Below, piece after piece: positions 1-9,483 of a stretch of DNA of 36,008 nucleotides. The number at the start of each line of letters is the position of its first letter. Within the stretch, counting starts at the first letter, position 1. Position numbers and translations under genes: made by a program. The stretch is from Candidatus Nomurabacteria bacterium. GTDB taxonomy: Bacteria; Patescibacteriota; Minisyncoccia; Phycocordibacterales; UBA9973. The DNA lies in NCBI GenBank assembly GCA_943354645.1, contig CALRCO010000002.1:1-36008 (forward strand). Direction: 5' to 3'. The notes beneath the pieces were generated by a model. That model was not told the DNA's origin. It made no database searches and saw only the letters and a program-made list of their open reading frames with translations.

Positions 1-434
1 CTGAGAGGTTCTATCACTGCAAGGAGAACATATTTTCCAAAAGCAAGTTTATCAGATGAGTTCTTTTTCTTGTCAGTGGCATTGTTTTTTAAACACTCGA
101 TGGTAAAAGGGAGTTCATAGTTAGGATATTTTTCTCCTTTTGAAACTTTTTCATAGGACCAATTTTCTACGGCATAACCCCCCATACCAAATGTAATAGG
201 AGAACCGTAGGCCTTGATAAGAAAATCTTGTAAGAAAAGCTCTGTATGTGATGAATTCTTACTGTGGACTAAAACATAACCTTGTTCTCGAGCTCCATAC
301 CGTCCTTCATTTGTATCAGGATGCGCACTTACTTTGAAAAGGGTTATTGCTTCTTGCGTTTTTTCCGAAGCGTTTGCGTATGCGTTAATTGCTTCAAGGA
401 CTTCTTCTTCTGAGAGGAAATTGTAGGGCTTCAT
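1..434 (-). CDS. hypothetical protein, N-terminal 144 codons; the gene runs off the left edge
   Basis: Hand translation of the reverse strand from the ATG (complement of 432-434) gives MKPYNFLSEEEVLEAINAYANASEKTQEAITLFKV... It stays open to position 1. It is missing from the ORF track because the window truncates it. No family recognised. Confidence 0.55.
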   Translation of the reverse strand, partial: MKPYNFLSEEEVLEAINAYANASEKTQEAITLFKVSAHPDTNEGRYGAREQGYVLVHSKNSSHTELFLQDFLIKAYGSPITFGMGGYAVENWSYEKVSKGEKYPNYELPFTIECLKNNATDKKKNSSDKLAFGKYVLLAVIEPL

Positions 435-545
435 TTGTTTAAATTTTTCTCCATTATACACCATATACATATATTGTCAATATTCTTTTTTCACTTCATC
501 CCACTATAAAAGATGATATGATATAAGCACTCGTTTTTTGTGTCC

Positions 546-558
546 CTACTTACTACTA
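546..558 (+). repeat. CTACTTACTACTA leader motif, copy in the nrdB 5' leader
   Basis: Exact 13-mer in sense orientation, 35 nt upstream of the nrdB ATG. The same 13-mer lies upstream of uppP, rsmE and trxB. A partial second copy, CTACTTACTAA, is at 580-590. Confidence 0.7.
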
Positions 559-560
559 TC

Positions 561-576
561 TCCGCCAGCTGGCGGA
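561..576. promoter_or_regulatory. perfect 16-bp GC-rich palindrome TCCGCCAGCTGGCGGA in the nrdB leader (hairpin or operator)
   Basis: Perfect self-complementarity read directly. It is flanked on both sides by CTACTTACTA-type sequence and ends 17 nt before the nrdB ATG. Confidence 0.5.
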
Positions 577-593
577 TAACTACTTACTAATTT

Positions 594-1595
594 ATGGCTG
601 ACAAAAAAATCCTCAATAATTCTTCTACTGACCCGAACAAAATTCTCCCGATGACATATAAGTGGGCGCGTAAGCACTACAAAGATGGTGTGTCTAACAA
701 CTGGACACCTGATGAAGTGAGCATGCAGAAAGATGTGGAGACATGGAAAGCGCCAAACGGCCTCTCCGATGATGAGCGTCGGCTTATTATGTGGAATATG
801 GGATTTTTCTCTACTGCAGAATCGCTGACCGCAAACAATATCGTCCTTGCGATTTATCGCCACATTACCAATCCTGAATGTCGCCAGTATTTATTGCGCC
901 AAGCATACGAAGAAGCAGTGCACACGGATACGTTCATTTATTGCTGTGATAGTTTGGGACTCAATCCGGATGAAGTCTATTCGATGTACCAGACGATACC
1001 GTCCATCAAAGCAAAAGATGATTTTGTGGTGGATATGACCAAATCTATTTTTGATGATAATTTTAAAACTGACTCGGTAGAAAATATTCAAAAATTTGTG
1101 CATGACTTGGTGGGGTACTACATCATCATGGAAGGTATTTTCTTTTATGCAGGATTTGTCATGATGCTTTCATTCTTGCGTCAAAATCGCATGACCGGTG
1201 TCGCAGAACAATTCCAATACATCTTGCGCGATGAATCAGTCCACTTGGCATTCGGTGCGGATCTCATCAATACCATTATTGAAGAAAATCCAACTATTTG
1301 GACCAATGAATTAAAAACAACGATCACAAATAATATTAAAAAAGCAGTTGATCTCGAAGTTGCCTATGCAAAAGACTGTCTCCCGCGCGGTATCTTAGGA
1401 CTTAATGCAGATGCAATCAAAACATATATTGAATACATCGCTGATCGACGTTTGGAACGCATTGGTCTTGAAAAAGTATACGGCAGTGAAAACCCATTCC
1501 CATGGATGAGTGAAATTATTGACCTCCGCAAAGAAAAGAATTTCTTTGAGACACGCGTTACCGAATACAAATCTGGGGGTACGCTTGAATGGTAA
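594..1595 (+). CDS. nrdB: ribonucleotide reductase beta subunit (R2), class Ic-like: Phe at the radical-Tyr position and Glu as the first metal ligand
   Basis: 333-aa ORF with the R2 ferritin-like metal motifs FFSTAESL, EEAVH, IMEGIFFYAGF and RDESVH. The C-terminus NFFETRVTEYK is typical of R2. Phe114 (933-935) sits four residues after His110. Confidence 0.93.
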   Translation: MADKKILNNSSTDPNKILPMTYKWARKHYKDGVSNNWTPDEVSMQKDVETWKAPNGLSDDERRLIMWNMGFFSTAESLTANNIVLAIYRHITNPECRQYLLRQAYEEAVHTDTFIYCCDSLGLNPDEVYSMYQTIPSIKAKDDFVVDMTKSIFDDNFKTDSVENIQKFVHDLVGYYIIMEGIFFYAGFVMMLSFLRQNRMTGVAEQFQYILRDESVHLAFGADLINTIIEENPTIWTNELKTTITNNIKKAVDLEVAYAKDCLPRGILGLNADAIKTYIEYIADRRLERIGLEKVYGSENPFPWMSEIIDLRKEKNFFETRVTEYKSGGTLEW

Positions 1596-2590: not shown

Positions 2591-2597
2591 TACTTAC

Positions 2598-2653
2598 TAA
2601 ACCCTAAACCCTAAACCCTAGACCCTAAACCCTAAACCCTAGACCCTAACCCC
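2598..2653. repeat. tandem heptamer array (TAAACCC)n, 8 units, telomere-like (TTTAGGG on the other strand)
   Basis: Units read directly: TAAACCC x3, TAGACCC, TAAACCC x2, TAGACCC, TAACCCC. A shorter array with the same lead-in, TACTAAACCC, is at 16611-16638. Confidence 0.9.
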
Positions 2654-2675
2654 TCCTTTTGCTATACTCTTTATG

Positions 2676-3300: not shown

Positions 3301-5742
3301 ATGGCATTTTTGGGAATAAAACTATTTGACGCGGACGCGAAATTTGTGGCTAAAATCCAGCCACTCGTCAAAAAAATAAATACACTCGAACCAGAGATGG
3401 TGGCACTTACTGATGCTGATTTTCCTATAAAAACAGCCGAACTCAAAGAGCGCCTTTCTAAAGGTGAATCTCTTGACGCTATTTTGCCAGAAGCATTTGC
3501 GCTTGTGCGTGAAGCATCTAAACGAACCTTGGGTCAACGCCACTATGACGTACAACTTACCGGTGGAATTATTTTGCATAAAAATAATATTGCAGAAATG
3601 CGCACAGGGGAAGGAAAAACATTGGTGGGAACATTGCCCGTGTATTTACATGCGCTTGTTGGGCGTGGTGTGCATGTAGTGACGGTCAATGATTATCTCG
3701 CACGTCGCGATGCGGATTGGATGGGACAGATCTACGCATTTCTCGGTCTCTCTGTTGGTGTCGTGAACGGTCAAAATATCTCGTACCTCTACGATAAAAA
3801 TAATAAAAATGAAACGCAAGATGAAACTCGCGATGAGACCGGCAGTTTCAAAGTCGCGTATGAATTTCTTAAACAATGTTCACGCCGCGATGCGTATGCC
3901 GCAGATATTACGTATGGTACGAACTCAGAATTTGGGTTTGATTACTTGCGCGATAACCTCGTCTCTCAAAAAGAACAGTTGGTGCAGCGCGATCACTACT
4001 TTGCATTAGTAGATGAAATCGACTCTATCTTAATCGATGAAGCTCGCACTCCGCTTATTATTTCCCAAGAATCTGCAGATAGTGAAAAACTCTATGATAC
4101 CTTTGCGCGTATCGCAAAACAACTTGTAAAAGATACCGATTATACGGTTGATGAAAAATTTAGCTCTATCAGCATGACGGATGCAGGTATTACTCGCGCA
4201 GAAAGTTTACTCGGTATTGATAATATTTATACAGAAAAAGGTATTAAGTACGTACATCATTTAGAAACAGCGGTTCGTGCTGAGGCGCTCTACCACAAAG
4301 ACAAAGAATATGTTGTCAAAGATGATGAAATTATTATTGTCGATTCTTTTACAGGACGCTTACAACCAGGTCGCCGGTGGAATGAAGGACTTCACCAAGC
4401 AATTGAAGCAAAAGAAGGGGTGAAGATTCAAAAAGAAACACGAGCTGCTGCGTCTATCACGTACCAGAACTTTTTCAAACTCTACGATAAACTCGCGGGA
4501 ATGACGGGTACCGCAAAAACATCTGAAGAAGAATTTTTGAAAGTATATGGACTTGCGGTGGTAGTTGTACCAACAAATAAAAAAATTGCACGTACCGACC
4601 GTACGGATCTCATTTTCCAAACAGAACAAGGGAAGATGAAAGCAATTGCAAAAAAAGTAAAAGAACTCCATGATGCTGGCCGACCCGTGCTTATCGGTAC
4701 TATTTCTATTGAGAAAAATGAATTGCTCGCTGCCTACCTTGCAAGCGAAGGGGTGCCACATGTATTACTCAATGCAAAAAATCACGAGCGCGAAGGTGAG
4801 ATTATTGCAAATGCCGGTAAAAAGGGCGCAGTAACTATTGCTACCAACATGGCAGGTCGCGGTGTGGACATCAAACTTGGTGGCACGGAAGCAACTCCCG
4901 AAGAATCTACATTTGTTCGAGACACGAACGGCTTGTTTGTGTTGGGTACCGAACGGCATGAAGCGCGCCGTATCGACAACCAGCTCCGTGGTCGCGCAGG
5001 ACGTCAAGGCGATCCTGGAGAGACGCAATTTTTCGTATCGCTCGAAGATGATCTTATGCGCGTCTTCGGCGCAGATCGGATTAAGCATATGATCGGCAGA
5101 TTTAATATTCCTGAAGATGAGCCAATTGTGAACGGATTAATTTCAAAGACTTTGGAATCTGCACAAGCAAAGATCGAAGGTTTCCACTTTGATTCTCGAA
5201 AATACACATTTGAATACGACAATGTCCTAAACCATCAGCGCAAGACAATTTATGAACGTCGCCGAAAGCTTCTCTTCGGAGATGAATCAACGATCCGAGC
5301 ATTCTTGGATAAAGTAGGGGAGGAATATCCTGAGACCGCAACTATTGTCGCTGAAAAAGAACAAGCGATTGGGGCCCCGTCATTCCTTGAAACTGCTCGT
5401 CGCGTCATTCTCTACTCTACAGACATTCTTTGGTCTGAGCATTTAGAAAGCATGGAATATCTTCGTGCGTCTGTGAACCTCCGTGCCTATGGCCAACGCG
5501 AACCGCTCGTGGAATACAAGAAAGAAGGCCTCCAATTCTTTAAGCAACTCGAAGCATCTATCCGTGGACAGGTGTTTGAACTCATTAAAACGATAGATAT
5601 TTCTAAAAAAGGGGTAGTACAAGAAGAAACTCCTTTGCAAAGTATCAATTTAGGAGGGGATGTTACCAAAGTTGGTCGCAATGACCAGTGTCCTTGTGGC
5701 TCCGGCAAGAAGTATAAGAATTGCCACGGTAAGGGTCTATAA
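3301..5742 (+). CDS. secA: preprotein translocase ATPase SecA
   Basis: 813-aa ORF with Walker A MRTGEGKT, DEAD-like VDEIDSILIDEARTPLIIS, and the blocks TGTA, NMAGRGVDIKLGG and RIDNQLRGRAGRQGDPG. The C-terminal zinc motif is CPCGSGKKYKNCHG. Confidence 0.97.
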   Translation: MAFLGIKLFDADAKFVAKIQPLVKKINTLEPEMVALTDADFPIKTAELKERLSKGESLDAILPEAFALVREASKRTLGQRHYDVQLTGGIILHKNNIAEMRTGEGKTLVGTLPVYLHALVGRGVHVVTVNDYLARRDADWMGQIYAFLGLSVGVVNGQNISYLYDKNNKNETQDETRDETGSFKVAYEFLKQCSRRDAYAADITYGTNSEFGFDYLRDNLVSQKEQLVQRDHYFALVDEIDSILIDEARTPLIISQESADSEKLYDTFARIAKQLVKDTDYTVDEKFSSISMTDAGITRAESLLGIDNIYTEKGIKYVHHLETAVRAEALYHKDKEYVVKDDEIIIVDSFTGRLQPGRRWNEGLHQAIEAKEGVKIQKETRAAASITYQNFFKLYDKLAGMTGTAKTSEEEFLKVYGLAVVVVPTNKKIARTDRTDLIFQTEQGKMKAIAKKVKELHDAGRPVLIGTISIEKNELLAAYLASEGVPHVLLNAKNHEREGEIIANAGKKGAVTIATNMAGRGVDIKLGGTEATPEESTFVRDTNGLFVLGTERHEARRIDNQLRGRAGRQGDPGETQFFVSLEDDLMRVFGADRIKHMIGRFNIPEDEPIVNGLISKTLESAQAKIEGFHFDSRKYTFEYDNVLNHQRKTIYERRRKLLFGDESTIRAFLDKVGEEYPETATIVAEKEQAIGAPSFLETARRVILYSTDILWSEHLESMEYLRASVNLRAYGQREPLVEYKKEGLQFFKQLEASIRGQVFELIKTIDISKKGVVQEETPLQSINLGGDVTKVGRNDQCPCGSGKKYKNCHGKGL

Positions 5743-7810: not shown

Positions 7811-8571
7811 TATATAAAAATCACCATCAACAACACAATCGCAAGCGCAATTCGATACCATCCGTATACACCGACACCTGTCTTTTTCATGTGCGCAATA
7901 AACCACTTCGCAGAAAAATACGCAACGATAAATGAAACGATACCACCAACAAGAAGGAGTGGAATACTACCTGATGTAAGGACATCACGTGCTTTATAAA
8001 GGTCGTACACTGTTGCTGCGGCAATCGTTGGCACCGCAAGCATAAATGAGAAATCAATCACAGACGCTTGTTTATATTTTTGTAATAAACCACCGATGAG
8101 TACTCCTCCAGATCGGGAGACGCCAGGAATGAGTGCGAGTGCTTGAAAACAGCCGAGAGAAAATGCACCCCCGAGTGTGAGTTCTTTTTCACCGGGGTTT
8201 TTTATTTCTCTCTTTTGCATAATAAGCAAAAGGATACCGCCGATGCCGAGGGCAAGTGCTATCACGGTAAGTGATCCACCGAGCAAACTTTTGACGAACG
8301 GATAGAGCACAAATCCAGCAATAGCCGTTGGGATAAATCCGATTGCCAATTTTGGGAAATTTTCTTTGGTAAAAAATCGCTTTACACCAAACAATGCGAC
8401 AACGGCGATGATTGCGCCAAGTTGGATGGCGATGGTGAATGTTGTTTCAAATGCAGATGGCGATATGTGTAATATTTTTTCGACAATAAGTAAATGCGCG
8501 GTCGAAGAAACCGGAATAAATTCCGTAAGTCCTTCGATGATGCCTAAAATAATGACGTGGATGAATGACAT
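7810..8571 (-). CDS. uppP: undecaprenyl-diphosphate phosphatase (BacA/UppP)
   Basis: 253-aa polytopic ORF with the UppP N-terminal signature GIIEGLTEFIPVSSTAHL and the later PGVSRSG motif. Confidence 0.93.
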   Translation of the reverse strand: MSFIHVIILGIIEGLTEFIPVSSTAHLLIVEKILHISPSAFETTFTIAIQLGAIIAVVALFGVKRFFTKENFPKLAIGFIPTAIAGFVLYPFVKSLLGGSLTVIALALGIGGILLLIMQKREIKNPGEKELTLGGAFSLGCFQALALIPGVSRSGGVLIGGLLQKYKQASVIDFSFMLAVPTIAAATVYDLYKARDVLTSGSIPLLLVGGIVSFIVAYFSAKWFIAHMKKTGVGVYGWYRIALAIVLLMVIFI

Positions 8572-8593
8572 AAACTAGTAAGTAGGAAGTAGT

Positions 8594-8606
8594 TAGTAGT
8601 AAGTAG
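8594..8606 (-). repeat. CTACTTACTACTA leader motif, copy in the uppP 5' leader
   Basis: The exact 13-mer on the reverse strand, 22 nt upstream of the uppP ATG. The whole rsmE-uppP spacer reads TTTTTTGTCCTCCTACTTACTACTAACTACTTCCTACTTACTAGTTT in sense. Confidence 0.7.
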
Positions 8607-8618
8607 GAGGACAAAAAA

Positions 8619-9302
8619 TTAGAACAGATCCGAGAGCCAGGCAGATCCGACAATTGCTGCAGTTTCAGCACGAAGGATGCGAGTACCAACACTGCCGATA
8701 CTAATACCAGATTCTTGTGCATGTGCCAGCTCTTCAGTATGCCAGCCACCTTCGGGACCGATAAAAATTGTTTCCACCGAAGTGTTTTTTTGAAGTGCTT
8801 GGCCCGATGGGTCAAGGAGAATTGCATTGTGACCAAAGAGTTCACATGCACGAGCAAATGACATATATTCAACGCTCGGTATTCTACCGCGACCTGATTG
8901 CTCGGCTGCTTCTTTTGCAATAAGGCGCAGTCGTGGCAATGGTGCGCCTTTTTTGATGGTGTGTTTTGTCTCTAGTAGAATAATATGCGACATGCCGAGC
9001 TCTGTTGCTTTTTGGATGACGAGTTCGGTATTCTCACGTTTCAATACTGCAACACAAAGGGTGAGTGGGGTTGCAGATTCACTCGCCACGGTGCGATGAC
9101 CGCTCAGTATAAATACACCTTCTTTTTCTGAGAGGGAACTGATGAGTGCGTCCGCTTCACATGCGTGTTCATTTACAAATACAATCGCGTCACCGACTTT
9201 TTTACGGAGGACATGTTTTAGTTGATGGAGGAGTGGTTTGTCAGCAATAGTGAGTGTGGTTGCAGTATTTTCAAATGGTATAAAAAATCTATCGATTCGC
9301 AT
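8619..9302 (-). CDS. rsmE: 16S rRNA (uracil1498-N3)-methyltransferase RsmE
   Basis: 227-aa ORF with N-terminal MRIDRFFI, HVLRKKVGD, GPEGGW and a C-terminal LGxRILRAETAAI block typical of RsmE. Confidence 0.88.
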   Translation of the reverse strand: MRIDRFFIPFENTATTLTIADKPLLHQLKHVLRKKVGDAIVFVNEHACEADALISSLSEKEGVFILSGHRTVASESATPLTLCVAVLKRENTELVIQKATELGMSHIILLETKHTIKKGAPLPRLRLIAKEAAEQSGRGRIPSVEYMSFARACELFGHNAILLDPSGQALQKNTSVETIFIGPEGGWHTEELAHAQESGISIGSVGTRILRAETAAIVGSAWLSDLF

Positions 9303-9325
9303 GCGGGTAGTAAGTAGTTAGTAGA

Positions 9326-9338
9326 TAGTAGTAAGTAG
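9326..9338 (-). repeat. CTACTTACTACTA leader motif, copy in the rsmE 5' leader
   Basis: The exact 13-mer on the reverse strand, 23 nt upstream of the rsmE ATG. Confidence 0.7.
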
Positions 9339-9483
9339 AAGCGAAACATGTATAAAACATCTCCTTATAATACAGGAGAATCTGATTTAATCCACAGTGG
9401 TGATTTTTTTGATGTAATAAGTCATTGTGCAGGGTGGTATAATAAACGTATTATTACTAGTTCCGTTTAACGGTCTCATTATT

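Follow-up and report, generated by a model that had tools for sequence, protein, structure and literature searches.

The closest described relatives of the sequences analyzed here are the TAACTGA repeats of Beggiatoaceae, Cyanobacteria and Bacteroidetes, which consist of 7-nt units in sets of 2-6 and are dispersed through intergenic DNA (MacGregor 2015, PMC4679880). These repeats are mostly oriented forward, the largest class ends 1 nt before a start codon without a ribosome-binding site (RBS), and reverse sets are occasionally found immediately behind a stop codon; no RNA structure was predicted for them and no functional theme was found among the downstream genes (PMC4679880). Heptamers were also reported at recF and recO of Nostoc PCC 7120, where one array extends over the initial bases of the recO start codon and involvement in translation is suspected (bioRxiv 10.1101/2022.06.06.494920), and heptanucleotides are, according to Mrazek 2007 as cited in PMC4679880, the most abundant of the longer simple repeats in prokaryotes. 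The DNA studied here is a stretch of 36,008 nt from a Candidatus Nomurabacteria bacterium of the candidate phyla radiation (CPR) (GenBank contig CALRCO010000002.1, positions 1 to 36,008; hereafter the window), and the element in question is a tandem array of the heptamer CTACTWA that stands before four of its genes, nrdB, uppP, rsmE and trxB. Heptamer sequences of cyanobacteria, the short tandemly repeated repetitive (STRR) sequences, were reportedly described by Mazel et al. in 1990, and to our knowledge heptanucleotide repeats beside start codons have been noticed since that year without being explained.

The window arrays share with the TAACTGA repeats their build from tandem heptamers, forward orientation, position near a start codon, absence of a Shine-Dalgarno (SD) sequence, lack of structure and patchy distribution across phyla, but their unit is G-free and their host is a CPR bacterium. 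The inverted-pair architecture and the link to PF05635 genes described below were not reported for the TAACTGA repeats (PMC4679880), and in this analysis TAACTGA itself turned up in a PF05635 cassette, where it forms the downstream arm (L221; L numbers denote loci in other genomes). Cyanobacterial heptamers are likewise tandem heptanucleotides in many intergenic copies, but differ from the window arrays in units, copy numbers and hosts. An inverted-repeat stem around a PF05635 open reading frame (ORF), as in the cassettes found elsewhere, is also the build of the 23S rRNA intervening sequences (IVS) of Coxiella burnetii and Leptospira, in which inverted repeats at the ends build a ~28-bp stem around an S23p/PF05635 ORF and which in Coxiella are cut by RNase III (PMC4990558). 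Classical IVS lie in 23S helix 25 or 45 and are excised by RNase III, whereas the cassettes described here lie between protein genes, from stop to start, and have heptamer arms; the window holds solo arms only, without the ORF.

Leaders that are G-poor and independent of an SD sequence are known from tobacco mosaic virus (TMV) omega and from S1-dependent A/U-rich leaders such as that of Escherichia coli rpsA (see also PMC4679880). They resemble the window arrays in being unstructured and G-poor, with short direct repeats and with SD-free initiation, which is probable for the arrays too, but there is no sequence relationship and a function is assigned to the arrays by analogy. Repetitive extragenic palindromic (REP) sequences, bacterial interspersed mosaic elements (BIME) and REPIN are palindromic dispersed intergenic repeats linked to RAYT transposases; like the array family they are short, intergenic, often hairpin-capable inverted doublets that also occur as solo copies, but they are palindromes rather than tandem heptamers, are tied to RAYT rather than PF05635 and follow no rule of abutting stop and start codons. 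Heptamer leaders as such are already known, and what is new here is the G-free CTACTWA unit, a CPR host with few SD sites and the solo arms. The preliminary description of the window, in which no described element of this sequence was known, had not taken account of the published start-abutting heptamer repeats without an RBS (PMC4679880; bioRxiv 10.1101/2022.06.06.494920).

Beyond that description, the arrays were found to belong to a cross-phylum family with a fixed polarity at gene borders, whose members elsewhere are the arms of cassettes able to carry a PF05635 gene. The C-rich arm, (CTACTWA)n in mRNA sense, is called the C-arm and its reverse complement, (TWAGTAG)n, the G-arm; the window of this Paceibacterota-like CPR species contains C-arms only. 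From the observed anatomy of the tracts, their family membership, the polarity rule, the association with cassettes and the turnover between relatives, we hold with a probability of about 0.55 that the four tracts are solo 3' C-arms of this cassette family that serve as passive, single-stranded, SD-independent ribosome landing regions, the role in translation being one that we infer.

Arrays at four gene starts

The 13-mer CTACTTACTACTA, from which the preliminary description started, matched exactly four times in the 36-kb window and not once in 100 dinucleotide shuffles, which upholds both its count and positions and the view that it lies beyond chance. When up to 2 mismatches were allowed, 12 matches were obtained against 0.55 expected, all 12 of them within the same four tracts. 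By sequence reading and Tandem Repeats Finder (TRF), each tract is a period-7 tandem array, (CTACTWA)4-5 in mRNA sense; TRF reported period 7 with 4.4-4.6 copies at three sites, and the nrdB array is split by a palindrome. The copies of the 13-mer, the arrays and the flank of the uppP array are as follows.

546-558 (+), 8594-8606 (-), 9326-9338 (-) and 15947-15959 (-): copies of CTACTTACTACTA from the exact-match scan
546-593 (+): nrdB leader array, CTACTTA CTACTAT CT (546-561), palindrome CCGCCAGCTGGCGG (562-575), CTACTTA CTAATTT (580-593), then ATG at 594; nrdB matches PF00268
8572-8606 (-): uppP intercistronic array, CTACTTA CTACTAA CTACTTC CTACTTA CTAGTTT, then ATG at 8571; BacA (PF02673) matches from residue 7
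8607-8618 (-): ttttttgtcctc, a T-run and GTCC that immediately flank the uppP array on its 5' side
9304-9338 (-): rsmE leader array, CTACTTA CTACTAT CTACTAA CTACTTA CTACCCG, then c and ATG at 9302; rsmE matches PF04452
15930-15959 (-): trxB leader array, CTACTTA CTACTAT CTACTTA CTACTTA CT, directly abutting ATG at 15929; Pyr_redox_2 matches from residue 1

All four arrays are co-oriented with the downstream gene and end 0-8 nt before its ATG, while the 13-mer ends 35 (nrdB), 22 (uppP), 23 (rsmE) and 17 nt (trxB) upstream, in agreement with the sense orientation and the range of 17-35 nt given before. The ATGs behind the arrays were supported as true starts by Pfam coverage and orthologues. At trxB the listed ORF reaches back to a GTG at 15989, but Pfam and orthologues put the start at ATG 15929 (306 aa), so that the N-terminal extension was rightly called spurious; the opposite strand of the arrays does carry stops in all frames, and the absence of an SD sequence was likewise borne out, with no GGAG-type SD or GGAGG-type word 5-10 nt upstream of the start at any of the four leaders. 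G-free runs cover 36 (uppP), 37 (rsmE) and 42 nt (trxB). G-poverty was nevertheless rejected as a signal in itself, since G-free runs of at least 24 nt are commonplace in the window (41% G+C; 83 versus ~58 in shuffles), and it is the heptamer array that exceeds chance. G, SD-like words and start codons on either strand are all missing from the arrays, which are therefore unable to fold.

In structure prediction, the probability of being unpaired over positions -20 to +6 was 0.63-0.84 for the four array genes and 0.23-0.60 for most others, which places the array leaders among the highest values around start codons in the window, and six tandem units of each heptamer type were predicted to fold to 0.0 kcal/mol. 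The earlier suggestion of an unstructured translational enhancer fits these predictions in its first half, and its second half, an effect on translation, stays at the level of a plausible reading. In an Rfam search, RNase P was the sole match in the window and the array leaders matched no covariance model. A perfect 14-nt palindrome, CCGCCAGCTGGCGG (562-575, + strand), unique in the window, is nested in the nrdB array, where it supplies the sole predicted stem of that leader and looks like a secondary insertion.

The rsmE stop codon (TAA, 8619-8621) lies only 12 nt upstream of the uppP array, and because this array fills the gap after the stop, at least the uppP copy is inside an mRNA. Upstream of the trxB array, the extended -10 TGgTATACT and gctttctgtcccctttt were found. 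Flanks resembling ttttttgtcctc precede two other arrays, ttttttgtgtcc (534-545) before nrdB and ctgtccccttttc before trxB, so that the T-run/GTCC flank is common to three copies and the first two units to all four. This pattern suggests that the copies may have spread as a unit longer than the 13-mer and, judged from sequence, points to copying, not independent slippage, as their source.

The array family in other genomes

For the family scan, the 19-mer CTACTTACTACTAWCTACT was searched against one genome per species. Matches were obtained in at least 118 stretches, where roughly a few tens would be expected by chance across the entire collection. Among the matches listed, the hosts comprised many CPR lineages, Bacteroides, Hymenobacter, Flavobacteriaceae, Nitrospirota, Omnitrophota, Firmicutes, Acidobacteria and others, two cyanobacterial loci carried a CTACTWA array (Rivularia and Heteroscytonema, both heterocystous), and the arrays were often multi-copy per genome, with a patchy, genome-specific distribution across phyla. 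Period 7 dominated the tandem repeats of the matched loci (388 of 1130 TRF rows). One Uhrbacteria metagenome-assembled genome (MAG) carries many copies of a fixed 30-mer, CTACTAACTACTTACTACTATCTACTAACT (L018, L020, L046, L073, L084, L101, L113 and L114), and this genome-specific sequence points to within-genome spread by copying.

With gene borders taken from simple ORF calls, the C-strand nearly always had its 3' end 0-20 nt from a border, and the opposite side of the array lay 10-250 nt from its neighbor. Two placements follow this rule: the C-strand directly before a co-oriented start codon, which is commonest in CPR, and, commonest in Bacteroidota, the G-strand (TWAGTAG)n immediately behind a stop codon that in many cases doubles as the array's first unit. 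When the stop-side cases were re-checked, ~36 of 43 kept a long ORF of 140-1202 aa with which no sense ORF competed; one (L029) was discarded as a mis-called antisense ORF over atpA. Genes behind start-side arrays included those for S10, L7/L12, AtpA, ClpP, SerRS, an AspRS-type protein, Pth, PyrG and Rpe, with Pfam matches beginning at residues 1-30 and no functional theme seen among them. Many of these diverse genes are highly expressed, and the arrays are compatible with high expression of the downstream genes.

Where two arms occur together as an inverted pair, the G-arm comes first and the C-arm last, with a spacer of 3-136 nt between them, in 48 of the 48 unique pairs, and none is reversed. 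The unit order of paired arms showed no covariation (0.416 versus 0.422 ± 0.025 in shuffles), and selection for perfect arm-arm hairpin pairing was set aside as not detectable. Five ORFs in the pattern-selected loci matched PF05635, the family of the 23S rRNA-intervening sequence protein (E 1e-35 to 1e-38), and four of these ORFs are framed exactly by a G-arm and a C-arm.

An independent test was carried out on 80 metagenome loci chosen by PF05635 similarity alone, 71 of which had sufficient flank, by scoring period-7 arrays within 130 nt of the gene. An array was present upstream in 45 of the 71, downstream in 48 and on both sides in 40, compared to 7 of 120 control windows. In loci with arrays on both sides, the upstream arm was G-rich and the downstream arm C-rich in 34 of 40 cases, with the reverse in 2, and the units of the two arms were reverse complements at 0-1 mismatch in 32 of the 40. 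Beyond its outer end, the downstream arm had a co-oriented start codon within 40 nt in 32 of 43 cases (median ~7 nt), and a co-oriented stop codon lay ahead of the upstream arm in 33 of 46.

The arms around PF05635 genes span 21-35 nt or more and their units vary widely, from CTACTAA (L223) to a CTACTTT/TTTTCTA mix opposite TAGTAAG (L158) and TAACTGA (L221); the CTACTWA unit of the window serves as an arm of ORF-bearing cassettes at L005, L028, L052 and L223 (CTACTAA). One Flavobacteriaceae MAG (L035, ~4770-5300) has a PF05635 gene with (AAGGAGC)n upstream and (GCTCCTT)n downstream, and its G-arm is therefore built of SD-like words. In the literature searched, no link between heptamer arrays and PF05635 cassettes was found. 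Searching papers for the repeat's letters gave only primer matches of no relevance, and no published account of the anti-SD in CPR bacteria came up.

Array turnover among relatives

All four arrays were unchanged in same-species contigs (about 40 kb) from eight samples. A relative at 91-93% protein identity (L124) has a uppP array of the same place and length but of different units (CTACTAT x3), and retains the T-run/GTCC flank seen at the window's uppP array; its rsmE has no array, its nrdB lies directly behind nrdA without one, and its trxB has a near-leaderless promoter. In a TrxB orthologue at 94% identity (L119), the promoter and the flank gttttctgtcccctttt are kept and the array is (TTTTCTA)n.

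L119 185-223: replaced trxB array, TTTTCTA TTTAATA TTTTCTA TTTTCTA between unchanged flanks

In a further relative at 68% identity, trxB is preceded by TATAAT-N6-ATG and reads as leaderless. Arrays are thus absent or swapped at three of the four genes in relatives at 91-94% protein identity. In these comparisons, they are stable over the short term and are gained, lost or swapped whole over a slightly longer one. This turnover makes the exact array sequence dispensable, and a conserved sequence-specific function, of the kind considered in the preliminary description, did not survive the comparison of orthologous leaders. A metagenome scan with UppP found no relatives, an exact look-up of FtsZ gave no record, and the 12 hits of a viral-contig scan contributed nothing further.

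TTTTCTA, the unit of the L119 trxB array, also occurs in the downstream arm of the L158 PF05635 cassette, whose upstream arm is (TAGTAAG)n. Gene order differs between L124 14659-17185, where nrdB directly follows nrdA, and window positions 1-600. In the window, nrdA and nrdB are set apart by a divergent ORF, by a promoter of perfect TTGACA-16-TATAAT form (480-453, minus strand) and by the array-bearing leader.

Origin and role of the arrays

The preferred reading can be put as a sequence of steps. The complete element, as found elsewhere, is a hairpin cassette that comprises a (TWAGTAG)n G-arm after a stop codon, a spacer or PF05635 gene, and a (CTACTWA)n C-arm before the next start codon. In the window species, C-arms would have been inserted or copied between a transcription start (or an upstream stop codon) and an ATG, and would now make up nearly the whole 5' untranslated region of nrdB, rsmE and trxB, as well as the rsmE-uppP intercistronic spacer. 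The unfolded array would then act as a passive SD-independent landing pad for ribosomes in a genome in which many other genes look leaderless, and its composition and position would count where its exact letters would not.

Several results weigh against this reading. Loss in close relatives shows that none of the four genes needs its array. With neither a G-arm nor a PF05635 gene in the window (no ORF had a PF05635 match in Pfam, a motif scan gave only a 127-aa ORF that is not PF05635, and no complementary copy of the CTACTWA arrays was found within the 36 kb), a cassette origin of the four copies would have to draw on their likeness to the family. Some 60% of the arrays elsewhere are likewise solo, so that arrays may spread or arise without a cassette. 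The locus is contained in 13 lake-water metagenome DNA runs and in no RNA run, and a strict sigma-70 scan called no promoter at the three promoter-proximal arrays, where transcription starts were read from -10-like boxes.

We regard it as rather unlikely that the arrays are neutral or selfish simple-sequence DNA or dead cassette remnants, tolerated where and in the orientation in which they are harmless, with the genes translated despite them. Such an account agrees with the absence or exchange of three of four arrays at 91-94% identity, with no compensation visible at rsmE and nrdB, with a leaderless trxB in other relatives, with the patchy and genome-specific distribution, and with a period-7 share of the TRF rows that matches the heptanucleotide excess reported for prokaryotes (Mrazek 2007 as cited in PMC4679880). 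It does not lead one to expect that randomly tolerated insertions should lie 0-20 nt from a start yet 10-250 nt from the other neighbor, that they should stand ahead of essential, highly expressed genes, that the trxB array should be swapped in place for another G-free heptamer array instead of merely being lost, or that the uppP array should keep its position and length across species. Less probable again, and improbable in our judgement, is a post-transcriptional regulon in which the arrays are binding sites of a dedicated trans-acting protein (a PF05635 four-helix bundle, S1 or a cold-shock protein), as MacGregor 2015 proposes for the TAACTGA repeats (PMC4679880). Across many phyla, phased arrays of 4-5 units do recur beside genes of PF05635, a family that has a weak relationship to bAvd, and the shared first units and flank of the window copies would suit a binding site; yet the downstream genes have no functional theme, the units differ among cassettes and between 94%-identical orthologues, the window has no PF05635 gene, and the unit order of paired arms does not covary.

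Two further explanations carry very little probability. An all-frame stop barrier, in which outward-reading (TWAGTAG)n would block read-through at the 3' end of genes and antisense translation at the 5' end, is in keeping with a polarity rule that holds for both placements, with stop codons that are often the first unit of a G-arm and with antisense ORFs of the window that terminate at the arrays, but any gain from halting antisense translation at a 5' end is doubtful. Moreover, since many arm types (GTGAGGC, GGGACTA, GTGAGTG) have no stop codon and the stops of TAACTGA lie on the other strand, the sense strand, stop content looks incidental. Similarly slight is the chance that the leader base-pairs with a changed 16S tail or a small RNA (GUAGUAAGUAG; the partner would carry UAGUAAGUAG), as had been considered before, or that the arrays serve slipped-strand phase variation. 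Four exact 13-mers and the presence of a complementary arm in cis in other genomes would favor pairing, but the window holds no complementary copy, and E. coli 16S and 23S rRNA, taken as a proxy for host rRNA, yielded no exact complement to any of the units. For duplexes of a leader with these rRNAs, the best energy was -17.9 kcal/mol, within the range of shuffled leaders (-16.3 ± 1.8). The same array also occurs in organisms whose 16S tail is canonical (Omnitrophica L002 and Bacteroides), and (TTTTCTA)n replaces it in the near-identical TrxB orthologue. Among the loci collected, none included the 16S 3' end of a CPR bacterium, the Omnitrophica tail being the only one found. Phase variation was rejected because array length is invariant in the eight samples and the units are imperfect.

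An extension of the preferred reading is offered tentatively, as possible but doubtful. STRR, TAACTGA, CTACTWA and dozens of other units would all derive, as arms, from a single pan-bacterial class of IVS-like hairpin cassettes, with the PF05635 protein encoded by the autonomous members. Cassettes of this class would insert precisely from stop to start as well as in 23S helices and leave ORF-less and solo-arm derivatives. The 3' arm would be shaped as an SD-independent leader, a function that would keep the downstream gene from being silenced by the insertion, and the window arrays would be derivatives that drive translation of nrdB, uppP, rsmE and trxB.

The link to PF05635 cassettes gives heptamer arrays a testable origin, as arms of elements built like 23S IVS. 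If the arms are SD-free landing pads, they would provide a natural, portable, structure-free leader module and a handle on ribosome initiation in CPR and Bacteroidota, and would explain start calls misplaced by gene callers, as at trxB. If they are only selfish DNA, they would still constitute a widespread mobile element, so far undescribed as such.

Other repeats and start regions in the window

Two further heptamer arrays were noted beside window genes.

16610-16639 (-): (GGGTTTA/GGTTTAG)4 array reported by TRF, beginning 7 nt past the stop codon of ftsZ (16646-16648) and followed by a terminator hairpin
13228-13246 (+): (AAATCAA)~3 array abutting ATG 13247 of a 174-aa ORF without a Pfam match; a repeat-built, SD-free leader

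The array at 16610-16639 fits the border rule, with its G-containing strand after a stop codon. Telomere-like (CTAAACC)n arrays occur at 2597-2654 (+) and at 16610-16639, where the minus strand reads (GGGTTTA)n. The array at 2597-2654 opens with a hybrid with the unit CTACTTA, TACTTACTAAACC, and has a terminator on one side and the promoter-like box TGCTATACT on the other.

Noticed post hoc, CUACUUA is 1 base off the 16S 3' tail CUCCUUA, and UAAGUAG is 1 base off the consensus SD UAAGGAG. A likeness of this degree has a ~2% chance over rotations and strands, other cassette units have none, and it is probably a coincidence.

Protein relatives of the window carry the names Candidatus Paceibacterota or Nomurabacteria. 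SD-like words are rare in the window, and extended -10 boxes (TGnTATAAT-like) were seen 6-10 nt before the starts at 3301, 14465 (-), 2063 and GTG 35602 (-), secA being among these genes, and at L121 10001. Such near-start -10 boxes suggest, from sequence, that leaderless mRNAs may be widespread in the lineage.

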